Notes: generated by a model from the sequence alone, not told the origin. Positions 26,761 through 57,455 are shown, counted from the stretch's first letter. The stretch: 64,000 bases of DNA from Candidatus Magasanikiibacteriota bacterium (GCA_041665405.1 JBAYIZ010000001.1:26618-90617); one strand, 5' to 3'. Numbers and translations are program-made.

Positions 26761-26843
26761 GCCCAGGTGGCGAAATGGTAACCGCACAGCCTTGAGGTGG
26801 CTGCGACCGTAAGGTCTTGGAAGTTCAACTCTTCTCCTGGGCA
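26761..26843 (+). tRNA. tRNA-Leu (anticodon GAG), class II with long variable arm
   Basis: Cloverleaf reading GCCCAGG..CCTGGGC-A; anticodon loop TTGAGGT; similarity to bacterial tRNA-Leu. Confidence 0.85.
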
Positions 26844-26857
26844 CGTAAGATTATTTT

Positions 26858-28438: not shown

Positions 28439-28514
28439 AATGGCGATTGTTTTTTGTTAAATGAATATGCGCGATTGACAATCTGGCGAAAATGGATTAG
28501 TATTATACTCAAAT

Positions 28515-28928
28515 ATGGACAATTCAAAATTACATATTGTGGCCATCACTGGTTACTTGCGCAAGGGTGATCAATTTTTGATCTTAAAAAGAAGTCCAAA
28601 TGAAATTGCCTTTCCCAGCAAGTGGACCATCCCTGGTGGAAAAGTTGAAGGTGCTAGCAGTGTTGTTGGTACTTTAAAGAGGGAAATTTTAGAAGAAACT
28701 GGTTTGGGAATCAAGGACAAAGTAGATTTTTTCAGTGAGTCAGAGTTTACTCGTCCAGACGGTTATCATGTGCTGGTGCTGTCATTTATTTGTGAATACG
28801 ATTCTGGTGAGGTGCAGATTGAGAAAGATTCATTCAGCGAGTTTGCTTGGATTAACAAAGAAACGTTTACCAATTACGATTTAATAGAAGGCATTAAAAA
28901 AGATTTTAATTTATTATTTAATAAATAA
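28515..28928 (+). CDS. NUDIX hydrolase
   Basis: Nudix box GGKVEGASSVVGTLKREILEETGL. Confidence 0.8.
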   Translation: MDNSKLHIVAITGYLRKGDQFLILKRSPNEIAFPSKWTIPGGKVEGASSVVGTLKREILEETGLGIKDKVDFFSESEFTRPDGYHVLVLSFICEYDSGEVQIEKDSFSEFAWINKETFTNYDLIEGIKKDFNLLFNK

Positions 28929-28933
28929 CACAT

Positions 28934-29518
28934 ATGGATATGAATTTTAAAGAAGAGCGTTCTTATGTCATGATCAAGCCTGATGGTGTTAAAAAAGGTT
29001 TGACTGGGGAAATTATTCGTCGATTCGAACAACGTGATTTAAAAATTGTTGCATTGGAAATGTTTCAACCGACTAGAGATCAAATAGATAATCATTATCC
29101 AAAAGAAGAGGCTTGGATTCGCCGTTTGGGACAAAAAACTTTGGGCACTTATGAAAAGTACGGTATTGATGCTATCAAAGAACTTGGTACTGGTGATGAT
29201 TTAGAAATTGGTAAGATGGTCCGAGGCTGGTTGCTTGACTATATGGTCTCTGCTCCATTAGTACGTATGGTAGTTGAGGGTGTACATGCAGTAGATATGG
29301 TGCGTAAAATTTGTGGGGCAACTTTGCCTTATTTGGCTGATATGGGTACTATTCGTGGTGACTATTCCGCCGATTCACCAGCTGTCGCTAATTCAGAACA
29401 TCGCGCTGTAATGAATATGGTACATGCTTCTGAAACTGCCGCTGAAGCTCAGCATGAGATTGCTTACTGGTTTGGAGAACGTGAAGTGATTTTCCCTTAT
29501 AAACGTTTTGGAGAATAA
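28934..29518 (+). CDS. ndk: Nucleoside diphosphate kinase (long form with insertion)
   Basis: NDK N-terminus ERSYVMIKPDGVKKGLTGEIIRRFE and C-terminal NMVHASE..AEAQHEIAYWF. Confidence 0.8.
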   Translation: MDMNFKEERSYVMIKPDGVKKGLTGEIIRRFEQRDLKIVALEMFQPTRDQIDNHYPKEEAWIRRLGQKTLGTYEKYGIDAIKELGTGDDLEIGKMVRGWLLDYMVSAPLVRMVVEGVHAVDMVRKICGATLPYLADMGTIRGDYSADSPAVANSEHRAVMNMVHASETAAEAQHEIAYWFGEREVIFPYKRFGE

Positions 29519-29527
29519 AAAAATATT

Positions 29528-29555
29528 TTGACACATTTTTTAGTCATGGTATAAT
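29528..29555 (+). promoter_or_regulatory. Near-consensus sigma70-type promoter (TTGACA - 16/17 nt - TATAAT)
   Basis: Seen directly in sequence after ndk; reads into 29583-29808. Confidence 0.45.
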
Positions 29556-29687
29556 AGATATGTTCCGATGAAGAGGCTAAAAATGTTCTACAATCTTTAT
29601 ATTTTGGATAGCCAATATTTGATCTTCCCGTGGGAATATCGTGCGGCTAACCACCCTAAATTTTAGGGACATAAGGCCTTTAATCGG

Positions 29688-29808
29688 AATAACAAAAAGG
29701 ACAAGTAATAGTAACTTTTTCGCTTTCCTCGCCTCGCGAGAGGCTCAGGGAATCGCCTCGGGCTCATAACCCGCTCAAAAGTAACTATTACTTGTCCTTT
29801 TTGTTATC
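29688..29808. repeat. Long near-perfect inverted repeat (~30-bp arms ATAACAAAAAGGACAAGTAATAGTAACTTTT / reverse complement) around a 57-nt GC-rich core
   Basis: Arms match at 29/30 positions; core contains nested GC hairpins. Confidence 0.7.
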
Positions 29809-29811
29809 GAA

Positions 29812-30171
29812 TTATATTTTAGTTTTGAAGTAGTTGATGATTTCATCTTGACCGTTGTAGCAATTTGCTCCGTCCCAGTAAAAAGGGACACCCATACCGT
29901 CTACTGTGCTTAGTCCACATTGTTTCCAAATTTTTGTCATAAGTATGGCGTTGTCTTGATTGTTCCATACTTCCTTTGTAGTGAATTGAACTTTGTCATG
30001 AACTTTGTTGGTAACAACAAAATCATCTACAATTTTACAGTGTGGGCAACCGTCACCAAAAAACAAGATAGATTCTTTTGGAATACCAGATGCTGTATTT
30101 GGCATAAAGATAAGCCAGATAGCAAAGGCCACAATGGCTAGGGTGATAATATAGGGTAGTGCTTTTTTCAT
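29812..30171 (-). CDS. Membrane-anchored thioredoxin-fold thiol:disulfide oxidoreductase (CPHC)
   Basis: N-terminal TM helix, CxxC motif GDGCPHCK, thioredoxin-like length. Confidence 0.6.
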   Translation of the reverse strand: MKKALPYIITLAIVAFAIWLIFMPNTASGIPKESILFFGDGCPHCKIVDDFVVTNKVHDKVQFTTKEVWNNQDNAILMTKIWKQCGLSTVDGMGVPFYWDGANCYNGQDEIINYFKTKI

Positions 30172-30190
30172 ATAAAAATATTATTTTTAA

Positions 30191-30219
30191 TAGATTCCCG
30201 TTTGCACGGGAATGATAAT
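30191..30219. repeat. Copy 2 of the dispersed palindromic repeat; likely terminator of rpmB
   Basis: TAGATTCCCGTTTGCACGGGAATGATAAT; 7-bp stem with 5-nt loop. Confidence 0.7.
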
Positions 30220-30298
30220 GTATTTTTAATTATAGCTTATTCTAAATAAATAGGCAATAAAAAATCCTCCCAAATGTTTGGAAGGATTTTTGGAATGG

Positions 30299-30472
30299 TT
30301 ATGCTTTTTTTGAAGCGGTACGGCGGCAAGTAGAACAGGCTTTTACCTTCTCTTTTCCAACCATAAGTAGTTGAAGATTTGGGTGTTGACGACGTGGAAC
30401 ACGGCGTTTACTGTGACTGACATGATTGGCGCGAGCGCTAGTTTTGCCGCAAACTGTGCAAGATTTACTCAT
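30299..30472 (-). CDS. rpmB: 50S ribosomal protein L28
   Basis: Reverse-strand translation MSKSCTVCGKTSARANHVSHSKRRVPRRQHPNLQ... matches the L28 consensus; 57 aa, below the ORF-track cutoff. Confidence 0.8.
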   Translation of the reverse strand: MSKSCTVCGKTSARANHVSHSKRRVPRRQHPNLQLLMVGKEKVKACSTCRRTASKKA

Positions 30473-30568
30473 AAGATTGATTCTTTAGTGATATTAGGAT
30501 ATAATTGATGATGAAATTATAGTAAATAATATGCCTTTTGTCAATAGAAAGGCCTAAATTAATGTTAT

Positions 30569-31171
30569 ATGGACTTTATTTCACTACTCTTTTATTTTTT
30601 TGTTATCATTCCTTCAGCTATTATTCATGAATATGCTCATGGTTGGATGGCCTATCAGCTGGGTGATCCTACTGCCAAATATGCTGGTAGATTGACGATT
30701 GATCCGCGCGTACATATTGATAAATGGGGGACTATCATCATGCCTATTGGTTTATTTCTATTAACTGGTGGTAAATTTTTATTTGCTTATGCTAAACCAG
30801 TTCCGTATAATCCATATAATCTAAAGGATCAAAAATGGGGGCCAGCTTTGGTGGGAGTTGCAGGGCCCTTAGCAAATTTTTTGTTAGCCGCTTGTTTTGG
30901 AATTTTGGTGCGCATGTTTCCAACTAGTTTGTTTGCGCCATTTTTTGCCATAATTGTGATGGCCAATATTACTCTGATGGTCTTCAACTTGTTACCAATT
31001 CCGCCATTGGATGGATCGAAAATTTTGTATGCCATTTTACCGCCAGGCGCACATCAGGTACGAACATTTTTGGATCGTTATGGTTTTATGATTATGTTGT
31101 TTTTTGTTTTCTTTTTATTTGATATTGTCCGTCCGATTATTGATGGTCTGGTACGATTGCTAATTGGTTAA
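30569..31171 (+). CDS. Site-2 protease-like zinc metalloprotease (peptidase M50 family), membrane
   Basis: HEXXH (HEYAHG) in the first TM region and a second conserved acidic/LDG motif; polytopic. Confidence 0.7.
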   Translation: MDFISLLFYFFVIIPSAIIHEYAHGWMAYQLGDPTAKYAGRLTIDPRVHIDKWGTIIMPIGLFLLTGGKFLFAYAKPVPYNPYNLKDQKWGPALVGVAGPLANFLLAACFGILVRMFPTSLFAPFFAIIVMANITLMVFNLLPIPPLDGSKILYAILPPGAHQVRTFLDRYGFMIMLFFVFFLFDIVRPIIDGLVRLLIG

Positions 31172-35266: not shown

Positions 35267-35295
35267 TTGACAAAATTTACTCAATCCGTTATTAT
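35267..35295 (+). promoter_or_regulatory. Consensus promoter TTGACA - 17 nt - TATTAT upstream of rplJ
   Basis: Exact -35 hexamer and good -10 with 17-nt spacer. Confidence 0.55.
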
Positions 35296-35426
35296 ATCCG
35301 CACCATAGACAGCAGGTGGCGAAAGCCTTAATTACCTGCCGAGGTACAAAAGCTATTTTAGTATAGGTCGATTTGTACTGTATTATCTGTCTGTGGAAAC
35401 ACAGATTTTTTTGTTAAAAAATCACT
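35296..35426 (+). promoter_or_regulatory. rplJ 5' leader with hairpins (candidate L10 autoregulatory leader)
   Basis: Hairpins GCAGGT..ACCTGC and TCTGTG-gaaa-CACAGA between the promoter and rplJ start. Confidence 0.4.
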
Positions 35427-55413: not shown

Positions 55414-55486
55414 GCCGTTGTAGCTCAGTTGGTAGAGCATCTCCATGGTAAGGAGAAGGTCCGCGGTTCAAATCCGCGTAACGGCT
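55414..55486 (+). tRNA. tRNA-Thr (anticodon GGU)
   Basis: Cloverleaf GCCGTTG..TAACGGC-T; anticodon loop ATGGTAA; similar to E. coli tRNA-Thr(GGU). Confidence 0.85.
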
Positions 55487-55587
55487 CTAGTTAAGATACC
55501 ATTGCGGTATCTTTCTTTGATAAATATAGCCTAGATAAGACTTTGACAATCTGGAATCTATGTGGTAGAATCTAAACTGTTATATTA

Positions 55588-55660
55588 GCCGGGTTAGCTC
55601 AGTTGGTAGAGCAGCACTTTTGTAAAGTGCGGGTCGCAGGTTCGAGTCCTGTTCCCGGCT
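55588..55660 (+). tRNA. tRNA-Thr (anticodon UGU)
   Basis: Cloverleaf GCCGGGT..CCCGGC-T; anticodon stem GCACT/AGTGC; loop TTTGTAA. Confidence 0.85.
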
Positions 55661-55674
55661 CTTTTTTACAAGTT

Positions 55675-56067
55675 ATGCATACTAAAATTAAAGGGGATAT
55701 AGGGGAATTATTAGTAGCGGCAGATCTTTTAGAAAAAGGGTGGATGGTTTCGCTGCCAATCAGCGAAAACACCAGATACGACTTGATAATCGAAAAAAAT
55801 GGAAAAATAAAACGGGTACAAGTAAAAGCGGTTGTACCAAAGAATGGGGCAATGATTATCAATTGTCGGTCGTCAAATAATTGGAATGTTATAAACTACA
55901 CAAAGAAAGATTTTGAAATTTTAGCCGCAGTGGATATAATTTCAAAAAATGTTTATTATATACCAGTAAAATGTATAAATAGAAGATGCATTAATTTACG
56001 ACTAACAGCGTCGAAAAATAGACAAGAGAAAAATATAAATTTAGCAAAGAGTTTTTTGAAAATATAA
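55675..56067 (+). CDS. PD-(D/E)XK-type nuclease-like small protein, wedged between tRNA-Thr and intron-containing tRNA-Tyr
   Basis: GDIGE...YDLII..EKNGKIKRVQVK resembles a G-E / D / E-x-K restriction-endonuclease-like core; true start taken as ATG 55675. Confidence 0.45.
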   Translation: MHTKIKGDIGELLVAADLLEKGWMVSLPISENTRYDLIIEKNGKIKRVQVKAVVPKNGAMIINCRSSNNWNVINYTKKDFEILAAVDIISKNVYYIPVKCINRRCINLRLTASKNRQEKNINLAKSFLKI

Positions 56068-56072
56068 TTATT

Positions 56073-56338
56073 GGGCAGATACCAAAGTGGTTAAATGGGA
56101 CAGACTGTGAACAATTGCAGCTCTTAGGGGAAACCCTAGGATGAACTCTCTGGGATAACGGTGAAGGCTAATGGGGGTGCTAATACCGTGGGAACTCCGA
56201 AATGTTCGGGGAGCGCCGTAGAGACTAGATACCAGAGTACCCTTCGTGGGTAAAGATATAGTCCATGCCGTAAGGAAACTTATGGATAAGTGAAATCTGT
56301 TGGCTCCGCCTTCGAAGGTTCGAATCCTTCTCTGCCCA
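56073..56338 (+). tRNA. tRNA-Tyr (anticodon GUA) interrupted by a group I intron in the anticodon loop
   Basis: Exons reconstitute GGGCAGATACCAAAGTGGTTAAATGGGACAGACTGT|AAATCTGTTGGCTCCGCCTTCGAAGGTTCGAATCCTTCTCTGCCCA, closely matching bacterial tRNA-Tyr including the long variable arm. Confidence 0.8.
56109..56292 (+). ncRNA. Group I intron (~184 nt, subgroup-IC3-like, no ORF)
   Basis: Starts G and ends G; IGS GCAG can pair with the exon end CUGU (G-U at splice site); P2 TAGGG-GAAA-CCCTA; CGTAGAGACTAGA matches the P7/J6-7 core of the Azoarcus tRNA-Ile intron. Confidence 0.7.
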
Positions 56339-56394
56339 CTTAGACCGCCATAGCTTTTGCGAAGGCAGTCCAAAATAAATTATTAATTGAACAT

Positions 56395-56547
56395 ATGTCA
56401 CAAGAAAAATTGGCAAAATTGGAGTGTTCAGAATGTAAGCGTGTGAGTTATTTTACAACTCGCAACAAAAAGCTAAAGACTCGCTTGCAATTGAAAAAAC
56501 ACTGCAAACATTGCAAAAAACACAATGAATTTAAGGAAACAAAATAA
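56395..56547 (+). CDS. rpmG: 50S ribosomal protein L33
   Basis: Translation MSQEKLAKLECSECKRVSYFTTRNKKLKTRLQLKKHCKHCKKHNEFKETK has the L33 C4 zinc ribbon and NK...L.LKK..C..C motif; 50 aa, below the ORF-track cutoff. Confidence 0.8.
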   Translation: MSQEKLAKLECSECKRVSYFTTRNKKLKTRLQLKKHCKHCKKHNEFKETK

Positions 56548-56559
56548 GCCTTTTGGTTT

Positions 56560-57345
56560 ATGAGTTTTTTTACCACTCTATACAATAGTTTGTATAATTT
56601 TAAATGGCTTCGTGACCAGAAGAATAATTCGAGCTGGGCTTGGGGCTATTTTTTTCTATTGATATTTTTGGTGGCTGGTTTATCGACTGTTTCTCTGGGG
56701 TATAAATATTTTGAAGAAGCTCCAAAATTAAAGCAGATGGTATATAGTGAATTGCCTGAATTTCAAGCAGAAGTAAAGGATGGGCAATTACAAGTGACTG
56801 GTATAGAACAGCCATATATAAAAAGTTTTGAAAATTTTGCTATCGTGGTAGATACAGTAGCGACTGGTACACTGGATATAAAAAGTTTTGTAAAACAAGA
56901 TACACAGTCAGTATTGTTGGTCACCAAAGATAATTTTGAAGTATATGACGGTCAAAGTAAAACCATCAAGAAACAATCAGTAAAAGAATTTAATAATTCC
57001 AAAACAGATCGAGCTGATGTTTTGAAGATTGCTGATAGTGCATTTAGCAATAAGATTATCTGGATGGTAATAATTTTCTGTTTTGTTATATTGTTTATAT
57101 TTTTTGTTGTTAGTAATTTGCTCAACGTGCTGTTTATCAGTTATTTGTTTTACTCTATTACGAAATATAAAAAGTTGGGCTGGAAATTTAAGGAAGTATT
57201 TACTGTTGGTTTGTTTACTGTGACCTTGCCATTAATTCTCACTCAAGCTGCTCCAAGTTTTTATCTAAATTGGGTATTCATGTTGGTGTTTGCTGGTTGG
57301 ATGTATTTGGTGGTGATTAAAAAAGATAAGGTGGTAAAAGAATAG
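56560..57345 (+). CDS. Hypothetical membrane protein
   Basis: TM helices at the N-terminus and in the C-terminal third; no motif. Confidence 0.4.
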   Translation: MSFFTTLYNSLYNFKWLRDQKNNSSWAWGYFFLLIFLVAGLSTVSLGYKYFEEAPKLKQMVYSELPEFQAEVKDGQLQVTGIEQPYIKSFENFAIVVDTVATGTLDIKSFVKQDTQSVLLVTKDNFEVYDGQSKTIKKQSVKEFNNSKTDRADVLKIADSAFSNKIIWMVIIFCFVILFIFFVVSNLLNVLFISYLFYSITKYKKLGWKFKEVFTVGLFTVTLPLILTQAAPSFYLNWVFMLVFAGWMYLVVIKKDKVVKE

Positions 57346-57378
57346 CAAATAGTGTATAGTATTTTTGCAGACAAACAT

Positions 57379-57449
57379 AGGGGCGTCGTATAGTGGTAGT
57401 ACTTCTCTCTCCAAAAGAGATTGCGTGGGTTCGATTCCTACCGCCCCTG
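57379..57449 (+). tRNA. tRNA-Trp (anticodon CCA)
   Basis: AGGGGCG..CGCCCCT-G acceptor; anticodon loop CTCCAAA; close to E. coli tRNA-Trp. Confidence 0.85.
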
Positions 57450-57455
57450 CTAAGT

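Follow-up and report, generated by a model that had tools for sequence, protein, structure and literature searches.

Several families of dispersed repeats, namely REP/BIME, ERIC, the Correia elements of Neisseria, and the pneumococcal BOX and RUP elements, are multi-copy and intergenic, often lie just past stop codons, occur in either orientation, are transcribed in mRNAs, and show presence/absence variation. In these families, the sequence of the stem or of the terminal repeat is conserved, and the range of each is one species or genus. The module described here differs from them in that the sequence of its stem is free, its apical junction is invariant, and its copies differ deeply even inside one genome, compensatory changes being among the differences. 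In comparison with the REP/RAYT system in particular, the stem sequence of the module is not conserved, and no recurrent RAYT or transposase protein is found among 293 proteins encoded by the flanking genes. In integron attC sites, conserved R and L boxes mark the outer arm ends and the centre varies, whereas the module shows the reverse arrangement, with variable outer arms and an invariant centre.

The hairpin at the present locus also resembles the bidirectional Rho-independent terminators found between convergent genes, since it has an A-tract, a stem, and a T-tract on both strands and lies 4 nt after one of the stop codons. However, its stem is 31 bp long and encloses a conserved junction of 57 nt instead of a loop of 3-8 nt, and many members of its family are without T-tracts. 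According to PMC6478431, the HMP-PP (thiS) riboswitch aptamer is embedded in a terminator hairpin upstream of one gene family. The module is likewise a structured RNA nested in a terminator hairpin; in contrast to the thiS motif, it has no constant neighbour and lies mostly downstream of genes. With RNA motifs found by comparative genomics (for example, those of PMC5737381), it shares the many representatives, the covarying stems, and the conserved junction nucleotides, but it has no match in Rfam 15. The kinds are known (terminator hairpin, dispersed intergenic repeat, structured RNA motif), and their combination is absent from Rfam 15 and from the literature that was searched. This combination unites arms of free sequence with an apical junction that does not vary, and it extends over diverged CPR genomes.

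To our knowledge, CPR bacteria (Patescibacteria) are uncultured, their genomes measure about 1 Mb, and hardly any of their non-coding RNAs have been characterised. The spacer analysed here lies between ndk and a convergent gene in the window, i.e. the whole 64-kb stretch of DNA that was analysed, and this one intergenic spacer leads to two RNA families missing from Rfam. The coordinates of its features are collected in Table 1; homologous loci in other contigs are denoted by L followed by a number.

Table 1. Features of the spacer downstream of ndk, with positions counted in the window
Feature	Position	Strand	Details or basis
Sigma-70-type promoter	29528..29555	+	-35 TTGACA 29528-29533; 16-nt spacer; -10 TATAAT 29550-29555
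Structured non-coding RNA, conserved	about 29562..29690	+	~128 nt; homology, alignment, covariance model
27-codon ORF	29583..29666	+	ATG 29583, stop 29664-29666; wholly within the non-coding RNA
Hairpin	29689..29807	both strands readable	119 nt; inverted-repeat search, fold
5' arm of P1	29689..29719	+	outer part = terminator base (A-tract 29694-29698 and GGACAAG)
Three-way-junction core	29721..29775	+	55 nt; R1 match, ~110 homologous copies
P1 closing pairs in core	G29722-C29774, C29723-G29773	+	model
P2	29725/29727-29750	+	UC/UC internal loop 29729-30 / 29745-46; GCGA loop 29736-29739
P3	29751-29767	+	model
J3/1 AACCC	29768-29772	+	model
CGGGCUCAUAACCCG	29759..29773	+	15 nt identical to initiator tRNA-Met anticodon stem-loop; alternative hairpin in minimum-free-energy fold
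3' arm of P1	29777..29807	+	ends CUUGUCC and T-tract 29798-29802, predicted 3' end of the non-coding RNA
119-aa CPHC-motif protein gene, convergent	29812..30171	-	stop codon 4 nt from hairpin

The identity of ndk was confirmed by a Pfam NDK match. The organism is a relative of Candidatus Magasanikbacteria (CPR/Patescibacteria): its ndk product is up to 88% identical to proteins of genomes in that group, and an exact-protein lookup with it returned no identical protein. An earlier note on this DNA had pointed to a consensus promoter of the form TTGACA-16/17-TATAAT at the beginning of the spacer. In the promoter scan, this site matches the consensus at 12/12 positions with a spacer of 16 nt, and a TG at 29547-29548 makes it an extended -10 promoter. 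As a class, promoter-like sites are not enriched region-wide (10 found against 8.5 expected); the individual site is supported because homologous loci have their own TTGACA/TATAAT-like boxes at the equivalent place. From the position of the promoter, transcription is predicted to start at ~29562.

To survey the relatives, the query 29519-29812 was run by nhmmer and blastn against 80 ndk loci from GTDB genomes, and the stretch ~29545-29700 was found to be conserved 3' of ndk in many of them. In an alignment of 13 homologues, UCUACAA is invariant, and RNAalifold predicts 20 pairs, of which 13 show compensatory double changes. The outer stem pairs UUCCGAU (29563-29569) with AUCGGAA (29683-29689), and the other helices include two GGUUUACC-type segments pairing together and a hairpin capped by YGUG; the fold has z = -4.6. 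A covariance model of the central 100 nt (R2) matches the window at 29577-29677 with 86 bits. It also matches 32/80 of the related Patescibacteria ndk loci, 30 of these on the ndk strand, in genomes labelled as Magasanik-, Paceibacter-, Yanofsky-, and Colwellbacteria and others. The copies in relatives have promoter-like boxes of their own and an ordinary terminator consisting of an A-tract, a hairpin, and a T-tract. In Rfam, searched at E <= 10 with the window region and ten ndk loci, no family matches this RNA. SRP RNA, 6S RNA, 5S RNA, RNase P RNA, and tmRNA were considered as its identity and rejected, as no model matched and the hallmark motifs are absent. Judged by this pattern of conservation, the promoter most probably drives a conserved small non-coding RNA and not a peptide, so the earlier suggestion of a structured small RNA or leader holds, in its small-RNA part, for this ~128-nt portion of the region. 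Found across many CPR lineages, the ndk-linked RNA is a candidate housekeeping or regulatory RNA.

The 27-codon ORF preceded by a Shine-Dalgarno sequence, which had been proposed for the same stretch, is present as described: an SD-like GAAGAGG lies upstream of its ATG, and a longer version begins at 29568. However, it does not behave as a gene among the 13 homologues, where the start codon is missing in 5/13 and in-frame stops are scattered from codon 5 to codon 25. The ORF is spurious, a by-product of the non-coding RNA sequence, and the region is conserved as RNA.

The second half of the spacer is occupied by the hairpin, for which near-perfect arms of ~30 bp around a 57-nt GC-rich core had been reported. 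Each arm has 31 nt, the complementarity is 97%, and the intervening stretch measures 57 nt, which gives 119 nt in total; A29713.A29783 is the sole mismatch. The nested hairpin noticed in the core (CCTC..GAGG) is GCCUC-GCGA-GAGGC at 29731-29744. The fold energy is -56 kcal/mol with z = -10.7 on the + strand and -58 kcal/mol with z = -9.0 on the - strand. In the 64-kb window, a probe made from the arm finds only these two sites, with 0 expected by chance.

The base of the hairpin, AACAAAAAGGACAAG...CUUGUCCUUUUUGUU, reads as a terminator both ways. On the + strand, CUUGUCC is followed by UUUUUGUUAU, the same motif is present on the - strand, and the hairpin read on the - strand is followed by CCUUUUUGUUAU. 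A U-run thus follows the hairpin directly on both strands; the stem, at 31 bp and AT-rich, is not the short GC-rich stem of a Rho-independent terminator. A consensus terminator scan of 28500-31000 gave 0 terminator-like sites, with a loop limit of 3-8 nt that the loop here exceeds. By its anatomy of A-tract, stem, and T-tract on both strands, the 119-nt hairpin looks like a bidirectional intrinsic terminator, and we count the plain terminator that relatives carry on the same RNA as fitting this reading of the hairpin base. The "bidirectional super-terminator" suggested previously accordingly describes part of the hairpin. The earlier note had also considered arms of this length and perfection unusual for a simple terminator, and the hairpin is indeed more than that, since its tip is a copy of a dispersed module. 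The most economical reading is that the element is probably an intrinsic terminator working in both directions, with a copy of a three-way-junction module as its apical part. The inner 5' arm (~29706-29719, AAUAGUAACUUUU) is similar to the proximal arm that is semi-conserved in the module family, and the A29713.A29783 mismatch falls in the semi-conserved 2x2 loop of that family.

The first other copy of the GC-rich core was found at L010:5683-5753, where the core matches at 83% and the arms are wholly different yet complementary. A metagenome scan with the pattern CGCTTTCCTCG N(26-52) CATAACCCGCT yielded 118 stretches, of which 113 are genuine. The other 5/118 are chance matches without arms or stems, and the covariance model of the module (R1) later gave them no score. 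The alignment contains 109 distinct copies. R1 matches the window copy at 29699-29797 with 81.5 bits (E = 4e-18), and it added 7 intact copies outside the search pattern and 2 degenerate ones. It finds no second copy in the 64-kb window, and of the 80 ndk loci it matches L010 alone. Extra copies occur at ~1 per 40 kb in the flanking parts of the retrieved contigs, and the range of the density is given as 1 per 40-170 kb. L112, a contig of 12.6 kb, has three copies, and several contigs have 2. Since 22 junction positions are preset by the search pattern, the unbiased sample consists of ~14 secondary copies; ~12 of the ~14 are intact and ~2 are decayed.

Two checks had been proposed at the outset. 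The search for other copies of the arms had the opposite outcome to that expected: it found none beyond this locus in the 64-kb window and 199 loci, and the core recurs with different complementary arms. The Rfam scan of the region gave no family match: a gathering-threshold scan of the window found nothing at the hairpin, and at E <= 10 in Rfam 15 the window region and five canonical copies matched only miRNA-precursor hairpin models, with 28-32 bits against thresholds of 60-200. Full-text searching of the literature, both by junction string and by RNA motifs of CPR, Patescibacteria, or Magasanikbacteria, found nothing relevant. The observation that would have reduced the hairpin to a simple terminator, a single copy with no covariation, was not made, as there are >100 copies and the covariation is very strong.

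All copies share the same order of segments: a variable 5' arm, a U-rich proximal arm, CGCUUUCCUCG, the P2 hairpin, CUCRGGGAUG, the P3 hairpin, CAUAACCCGCU, an A-rich proximal arm, and a variable 3' arm. In the model-based alignment, 92.7% of the cells are paired, compared with 64.4% in shuffles and 42-49% in slid-partner controls, and double changes occupy 1156 cells, compared with 342 in shuffles. The covariation of the module helices is very strong. P1 has a median length of 22 bp (range 7-38) and differs in sequence at every locus, and each of the four Watson-Crick pair types is represented in every P1 column. At 6-8 bp below the junction, P1 is interrupted by a semi-conserved 2x2 internal loop, which has an A.A mismatch in about half of the copies. 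P2 is capped by GCGA in 72 copies, GCCAA in 17, and GUGA in 4, and the P3 loops are UUCG, UGCG, CUCG, and UGUG (UNCG-type). The junction itself has ~25 near-invariant nucleotides, partly preset by the search pattern.

An early model in which GGG pairs with CCC across P3 was partly replaced by an extension of P2 (C7-G26, C8-R25) on the basis of three variants (L093:6829-6923, L131:12838-12935, and L112:209-306). In these, the UC/UC loop is changed to Watson-Crick pairs and C7-G26 to U-A, and from these compensatory changes we infer that UUUCCUCG pairs with CUCRGGGA as a P2 extension. G27 and G28 may pair with U5/U6 or with C50/C49, all of which are invariant columns. In our best model, P1 would comprise the arms, the U.C/C.U loop, and the pairs G2-C53 and C3-G52; P2 would be a long hairpin with the UC/UC loop and a GNRA cap; and P3 would consist of AUG...CAU, 4-6 further bp, and a tetraloop, with AACCC as a conserved strand. 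Some copies depart from this plan: L097, L114, L125, and L191 have an extra hairpin CCCGCCUAGGCGGG between P2 and P3 and form a four-stem variant, and in L168:851-968 the P2 loop contains an additional hairpin of 20 nt.

This family bears directly on the simplest alternative, namely a plain long terminator, or the ORF and hairpin together acting as a leader-peptide attenuator. The T-tract after the stem on both strands and the SD-like GAAGAGG before the ATG agree with it, but the ORF is not conserved, the next gene downstream lies on the opposite strand so that there is no + strand gene to be controlled, and the core is conserved at >100 loci with covariation. The family of covarying copies and the non-conserved ORF refute both forms, and we regard this alternative as barely credible.

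The base pairs of P1 show a bias that concerns the level at which the module is maintained. Wobble pairs are very rare in P1, P2, and P3 alike. On the + strand, P1 has 74 A.C against 35 G.U mismatches, and the same bias is seen in almost all gene contexts; an explanation by wobbles that track the direction of host transcription was rejected for this reason. An excess of A.C over G.U in P1 is the opposite of what is expected for an RNA helix selected on the + strand only. A DNA-level element, in which a DNA enzyme would recognise a cruciform or a hairpin of single-stranded DNA, would agree with the almost purely Watson-Crick P1, with this excess (which amounts to G.T over A.C on the - strand), and with an orientation that is not strictly tied to transcription. 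However, the GNRA and UNCG-type loops and the candidate U.G pairs of P2 are hallmarks of RNA on one strand only, copies show a 2:1 sense bias, and the mixed orientation within contigs leaves no replication polarity. Consequently, we consider an element acting as DNA highly improbable. RNA-level constraint, which the preferred reading involves, and a specific partner are indicated because the stable GNRA/UNCG-type tetraloops occur on the window's + strand only, evolution is compensatory both within and between genomes, and few copies are decayed.

Three stems around a highly conserved junction are also reminiscent of small ribozymes. It could be supposed that the module is a self-cleaving ribozyme or a nuclease processing signal that cuts polycistronic transcripts at gene borders, the junction being the active or recognition site and the ~22-bp P1 an RNase III-type substrate. 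The tight placement between cistrons, the median P1 length of 22 bp, and the semi-conserved internal loop of P1, usually an A.A mismatch, would all suit such a function, although no Rfam ribozyme model, those for hammerhead, twister, pistol, hatchet, and HDV-like ribozymes included, is similar even at E <= 10, and antisense copies exist. This seems to us quite unlikely. A hammerhead or HDV-like core was rejected separately, as the conserved nucleotides are absent.

The junction contains a further resemblance, to initiator tRNA. The stretch CAUAACCC is identical to positions 34-41 (C34-C41) of initiator tRNA-Met, a segment made up of the anticodon, A37, A38, and the three C residues that belong to the hallmark G-C pairs. 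In the module, CAUAACCC faces AUG and GG(G). It is kept in nearly all copies, including 6/7 of the pattern-independent ones; L112:4237-4336 reads CAAUAACCC. The 15-nt identity in the window (Table 1) comes from comparison with the tRNA-Met(cat) gene of L125, which carries ...GUCGGGCUCAUAACCCGAAG... ARAGORN and the Rfam tRNA model find no tRNA at 29689-29807; only the anticodon-arm sequence is common to tRNA. Domain PKI of the dicistrovirus intergenic IRES has a comparable anticodon-like strand paired in cis to its codon, the counterparts here being CAUAACCC and AUG; in the module, however, the resemblance is in sequence only, and the host is bacterial.

One may imagine from this that, through GG(G)-AUG...CAU-AA-CCC, the module mimics the tRNA-fMet anticodon arm paired to an AUG codon, and that its reader would be the 30S P site or IF3, MetRS, or a tRNA-fMet-specific nuclease (such as a VapC-type toxin). 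The retention of CAUAACCC in nearly all copies, the match of 15 nt in the window to the tRNA-fMet stem-loop of a related contig, and the formation of this stem-loop in the window's minimum-free-energy fold speak for such mimicry. Against it, chance would roughly suffice for an 8-mer to match one tRNA or another, GGG and AUG, as mere complements, carry no independent information, the stretch sits in an ordinary helix in the main class, and the variants favour pairing of G26 with C7 over C51. The tRNA resemblance is kept as a hypothesis because of the first of these points, and we think the mimic very unlikely. In its boldest form, the module would be a new CPR class of functional RNA imitating the initiator-tRNA anticodon arm docked on AUG, with the whole stem-loop present in the window's subclass, read by the P site or IF3 or by a tRNA-fMet-specific enzyme or toxin; this too is very improbable. 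If it were true, it would mean a translation-related signal at the gene borders of minimal-genome organisms.

In its genomic context, the core lies mostly 20-45 nt past a stop codon, so that the spacer is taken up by the arms. In ~63 cases the element and its upstream gene share a strand, and in ~28 they lie on different strands, i.e. there is a 2:1 sense bias with ~30% antisense copies, and the antisense copies still keep the junction sequence. Copies between convergent genes number 21, as against ~9 between divergent genes. A T5 run follows 38% of the copies and an A5 run precedes 43%, with neither in ~41%; in the window's subclass (GGGAAUC, n=8), the A5 run is present upstream in 8/8 and the T5 run downstream in 7/8. 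Both tracts occur in 10/15 copies between convergent genes. The presence of T- or A-tracts as a function of the orientation of the flanking genes was not discriminating at the thresholds used. The flanking genes are unrelated housekeeping genes, cysS, pilM, queA, yidD, rplK, and rnpA among them. The largest homologous cluster among the 293 flanking proteins has 5 members, so there is no constant neighbour gene, and the association with one gene family that characterises a riboswitch is not seen. Two further associations were tried and rejected: a replication-oriented polarity, as orientations are mixed within contigs, and an association with tRNA genes, which is unconvincing with 9 tRNAs within 400 nt compared with ~5 expected by a rough estimate.

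Comparison of orthologous spacers shows that they gain and lose the element. The pilM-cysS spacer holds it in three genomes (CysRS 59-74% identical), with arms, P2, and P3 all different, and L010 and L101 carry it on opposite sides of gpsA (proteins 77% identical). At L101:1270-1400, the site of the L010 element, there is another long inverted repeat, UGUCAUUCUGAGCGA...UCGCUCAAGAUGACA, with a GC-rich centre; it may represent another dispersed hairpin family in these genomes. The divergence between two copies is as large within a genome as it is between genomes. In a distant genome (ndk-like protein 42% identical), a module at L189:526-621 directly follows the 3' end of ndk in the opposite orientation, with A/T-tract arms.

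A miniature transposable element (MITE) was among the alternatives offered previously. The part of this idea that stands is the multi-copy nature of the GC-rich core, which occurs at >100 loci and in multiple copies per genome (1 in the 64-kb window). The part that does not stand is the anatomy: the arms are unique to this locus (the arm probe matches it alone in the window and 199 loci), no conserved terminal inverted repeats were found, and target sites are not duplicated, direct repeats of 3-5 nt being at chance level and those of 2 nt numbering 14 against 7.8 expected. Neither was a transposase or other recurrent neighbour found among the 293 flanking proteins. The 20-nt pattern had 0 matches in viral contigs, and blastn against phage and plasmid records gave nothing but one chance match of 25 nt. 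The element is neither a plain terminator nor a classical MITE, because there are >100 covarying copies and no conserved terminal repeats, target duplications, or constant neighbour.

A freer version of the same idea is the main rival to the account we favour. In this version, a small, selfish, non-autonomous element, made up of the core and a proximal arm of ~14 bp, would be moved by functions supplied in trans and would settle in the loops of intergenic hairpins already present, such as terminators, the outer arms being host stems. It would account for dispersed copies at ~1 per 40-170 kb in both orientations, for gain and loss at orthologous spacers including the L101 site with another hairpin repeat, for proximal arms that are semi-conserved while distal arms are not, for the plain terminator that relatives have where the window has a terminator with an insert, and for the 21 convergent against 9 divergent positions. 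On the other hand, it has to contend with the missing target-site duplications, terminal repeats, and transposase or constant neighbour described above, and with the absence from viral, phage, and plasmid collections. Moreover, copies on the same contig are as diverged as those between genomes, so there has been no recent burst, decayed copies are few (~2/14), and the stems change by compensatory substitution. Overall, we consider such an insertion element possible but doubtful.

In the account that we favour, the promoter would produce the ~128-nt structured RNA conserved beside ndk in many Patescibacteria (CPR), and transcription from the left and from the convergent CPHC-protein gene on the right would both enter the one 119-nt hairpin. 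The base of this hairpin would serve as a bidirectional Rho-independent terminator, and its top would be a dispersed RNA module closed by a long P1 of free sequence. The module would act as RNA, both at the 3' ends of transcripts and in the spacers between cistrons: as a pre-folded cap, it may nucleate the long hairpin, and a protein, the ribosome, or an enzyme that handles tRNA may read the cap in the course of 3'-end formation or processing or in the control of stability. A function in 3'-end formation on the sense strand only cannot explain the antisense copies (~30%) and the copies between divergent genes (~9). The account is also weakened by the ~41% of copies that have neither tract, by the lack of G.U enrichment in P1 on the + strand, and by the gain and loss of the element at orthologous spacers. 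As a whole, this account of a non-coding RNA and a two-way terminator with a three-way-junction cap acting in cis at transcript 3' ends and spacers has, in our judgement, an even chance of being right; our confidence in the nature of the region is high, and that in its mode of action is modest.

The retention of ~25 near-invariant nucleotides at many gene borders, amid changing surroundings, implies a specific partner, which may be a protein, the ribosome, or a nuclease. The pattern suggests a gene-border mechanism (termination, processing, stability, or mobility) particular to CPR bacteria. The covariance models R1 and R2 allow a census of both RNA families and give defined constructs for biochemistry.

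Some minor features of the surroundings can be added. The convergent gene had been called thioredoxin-like; its protein does contain a CPHC motif but has no Pfam match, and its N-terminus is signal-anchor-like. An identical protein is encoded on a JGI metagenome contig beside the same M50 peptidase gene, and this contig stops just before the hairpin element. Elsewhere in the window are a ribosomal protein L10 leader (75 bits) and genes for tRNA-Leu, two tRNA-Thr, and tRNA-Trp (35285-35420; 26761-26844; 55414-57450); this leader and the four tRNAs are the only Rfam or ARAGORN calls in the 64 kb. Between the CPHC-protein gene and rpmB there are two further hairpins (30176-30238 and 30257-30300). 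One is the palindrome GAUUCCCGUUUGCACGGGAAUG, with a sub-threshold Rfam match to FtrB, and the other is terminator-like, AAAAAAUCCUCCCAAAUGUUUGGAAGGAUUUUUGG, with sub-threshold matches of terminator type to ncr1575 and Phe_leader. Finally, a second perfect 12/12 promoter, TTGACA-17-TATAAT, lies at 30516-30544 on the - strand, where it is positioned to drive rpmB (30299-30472, - strand).
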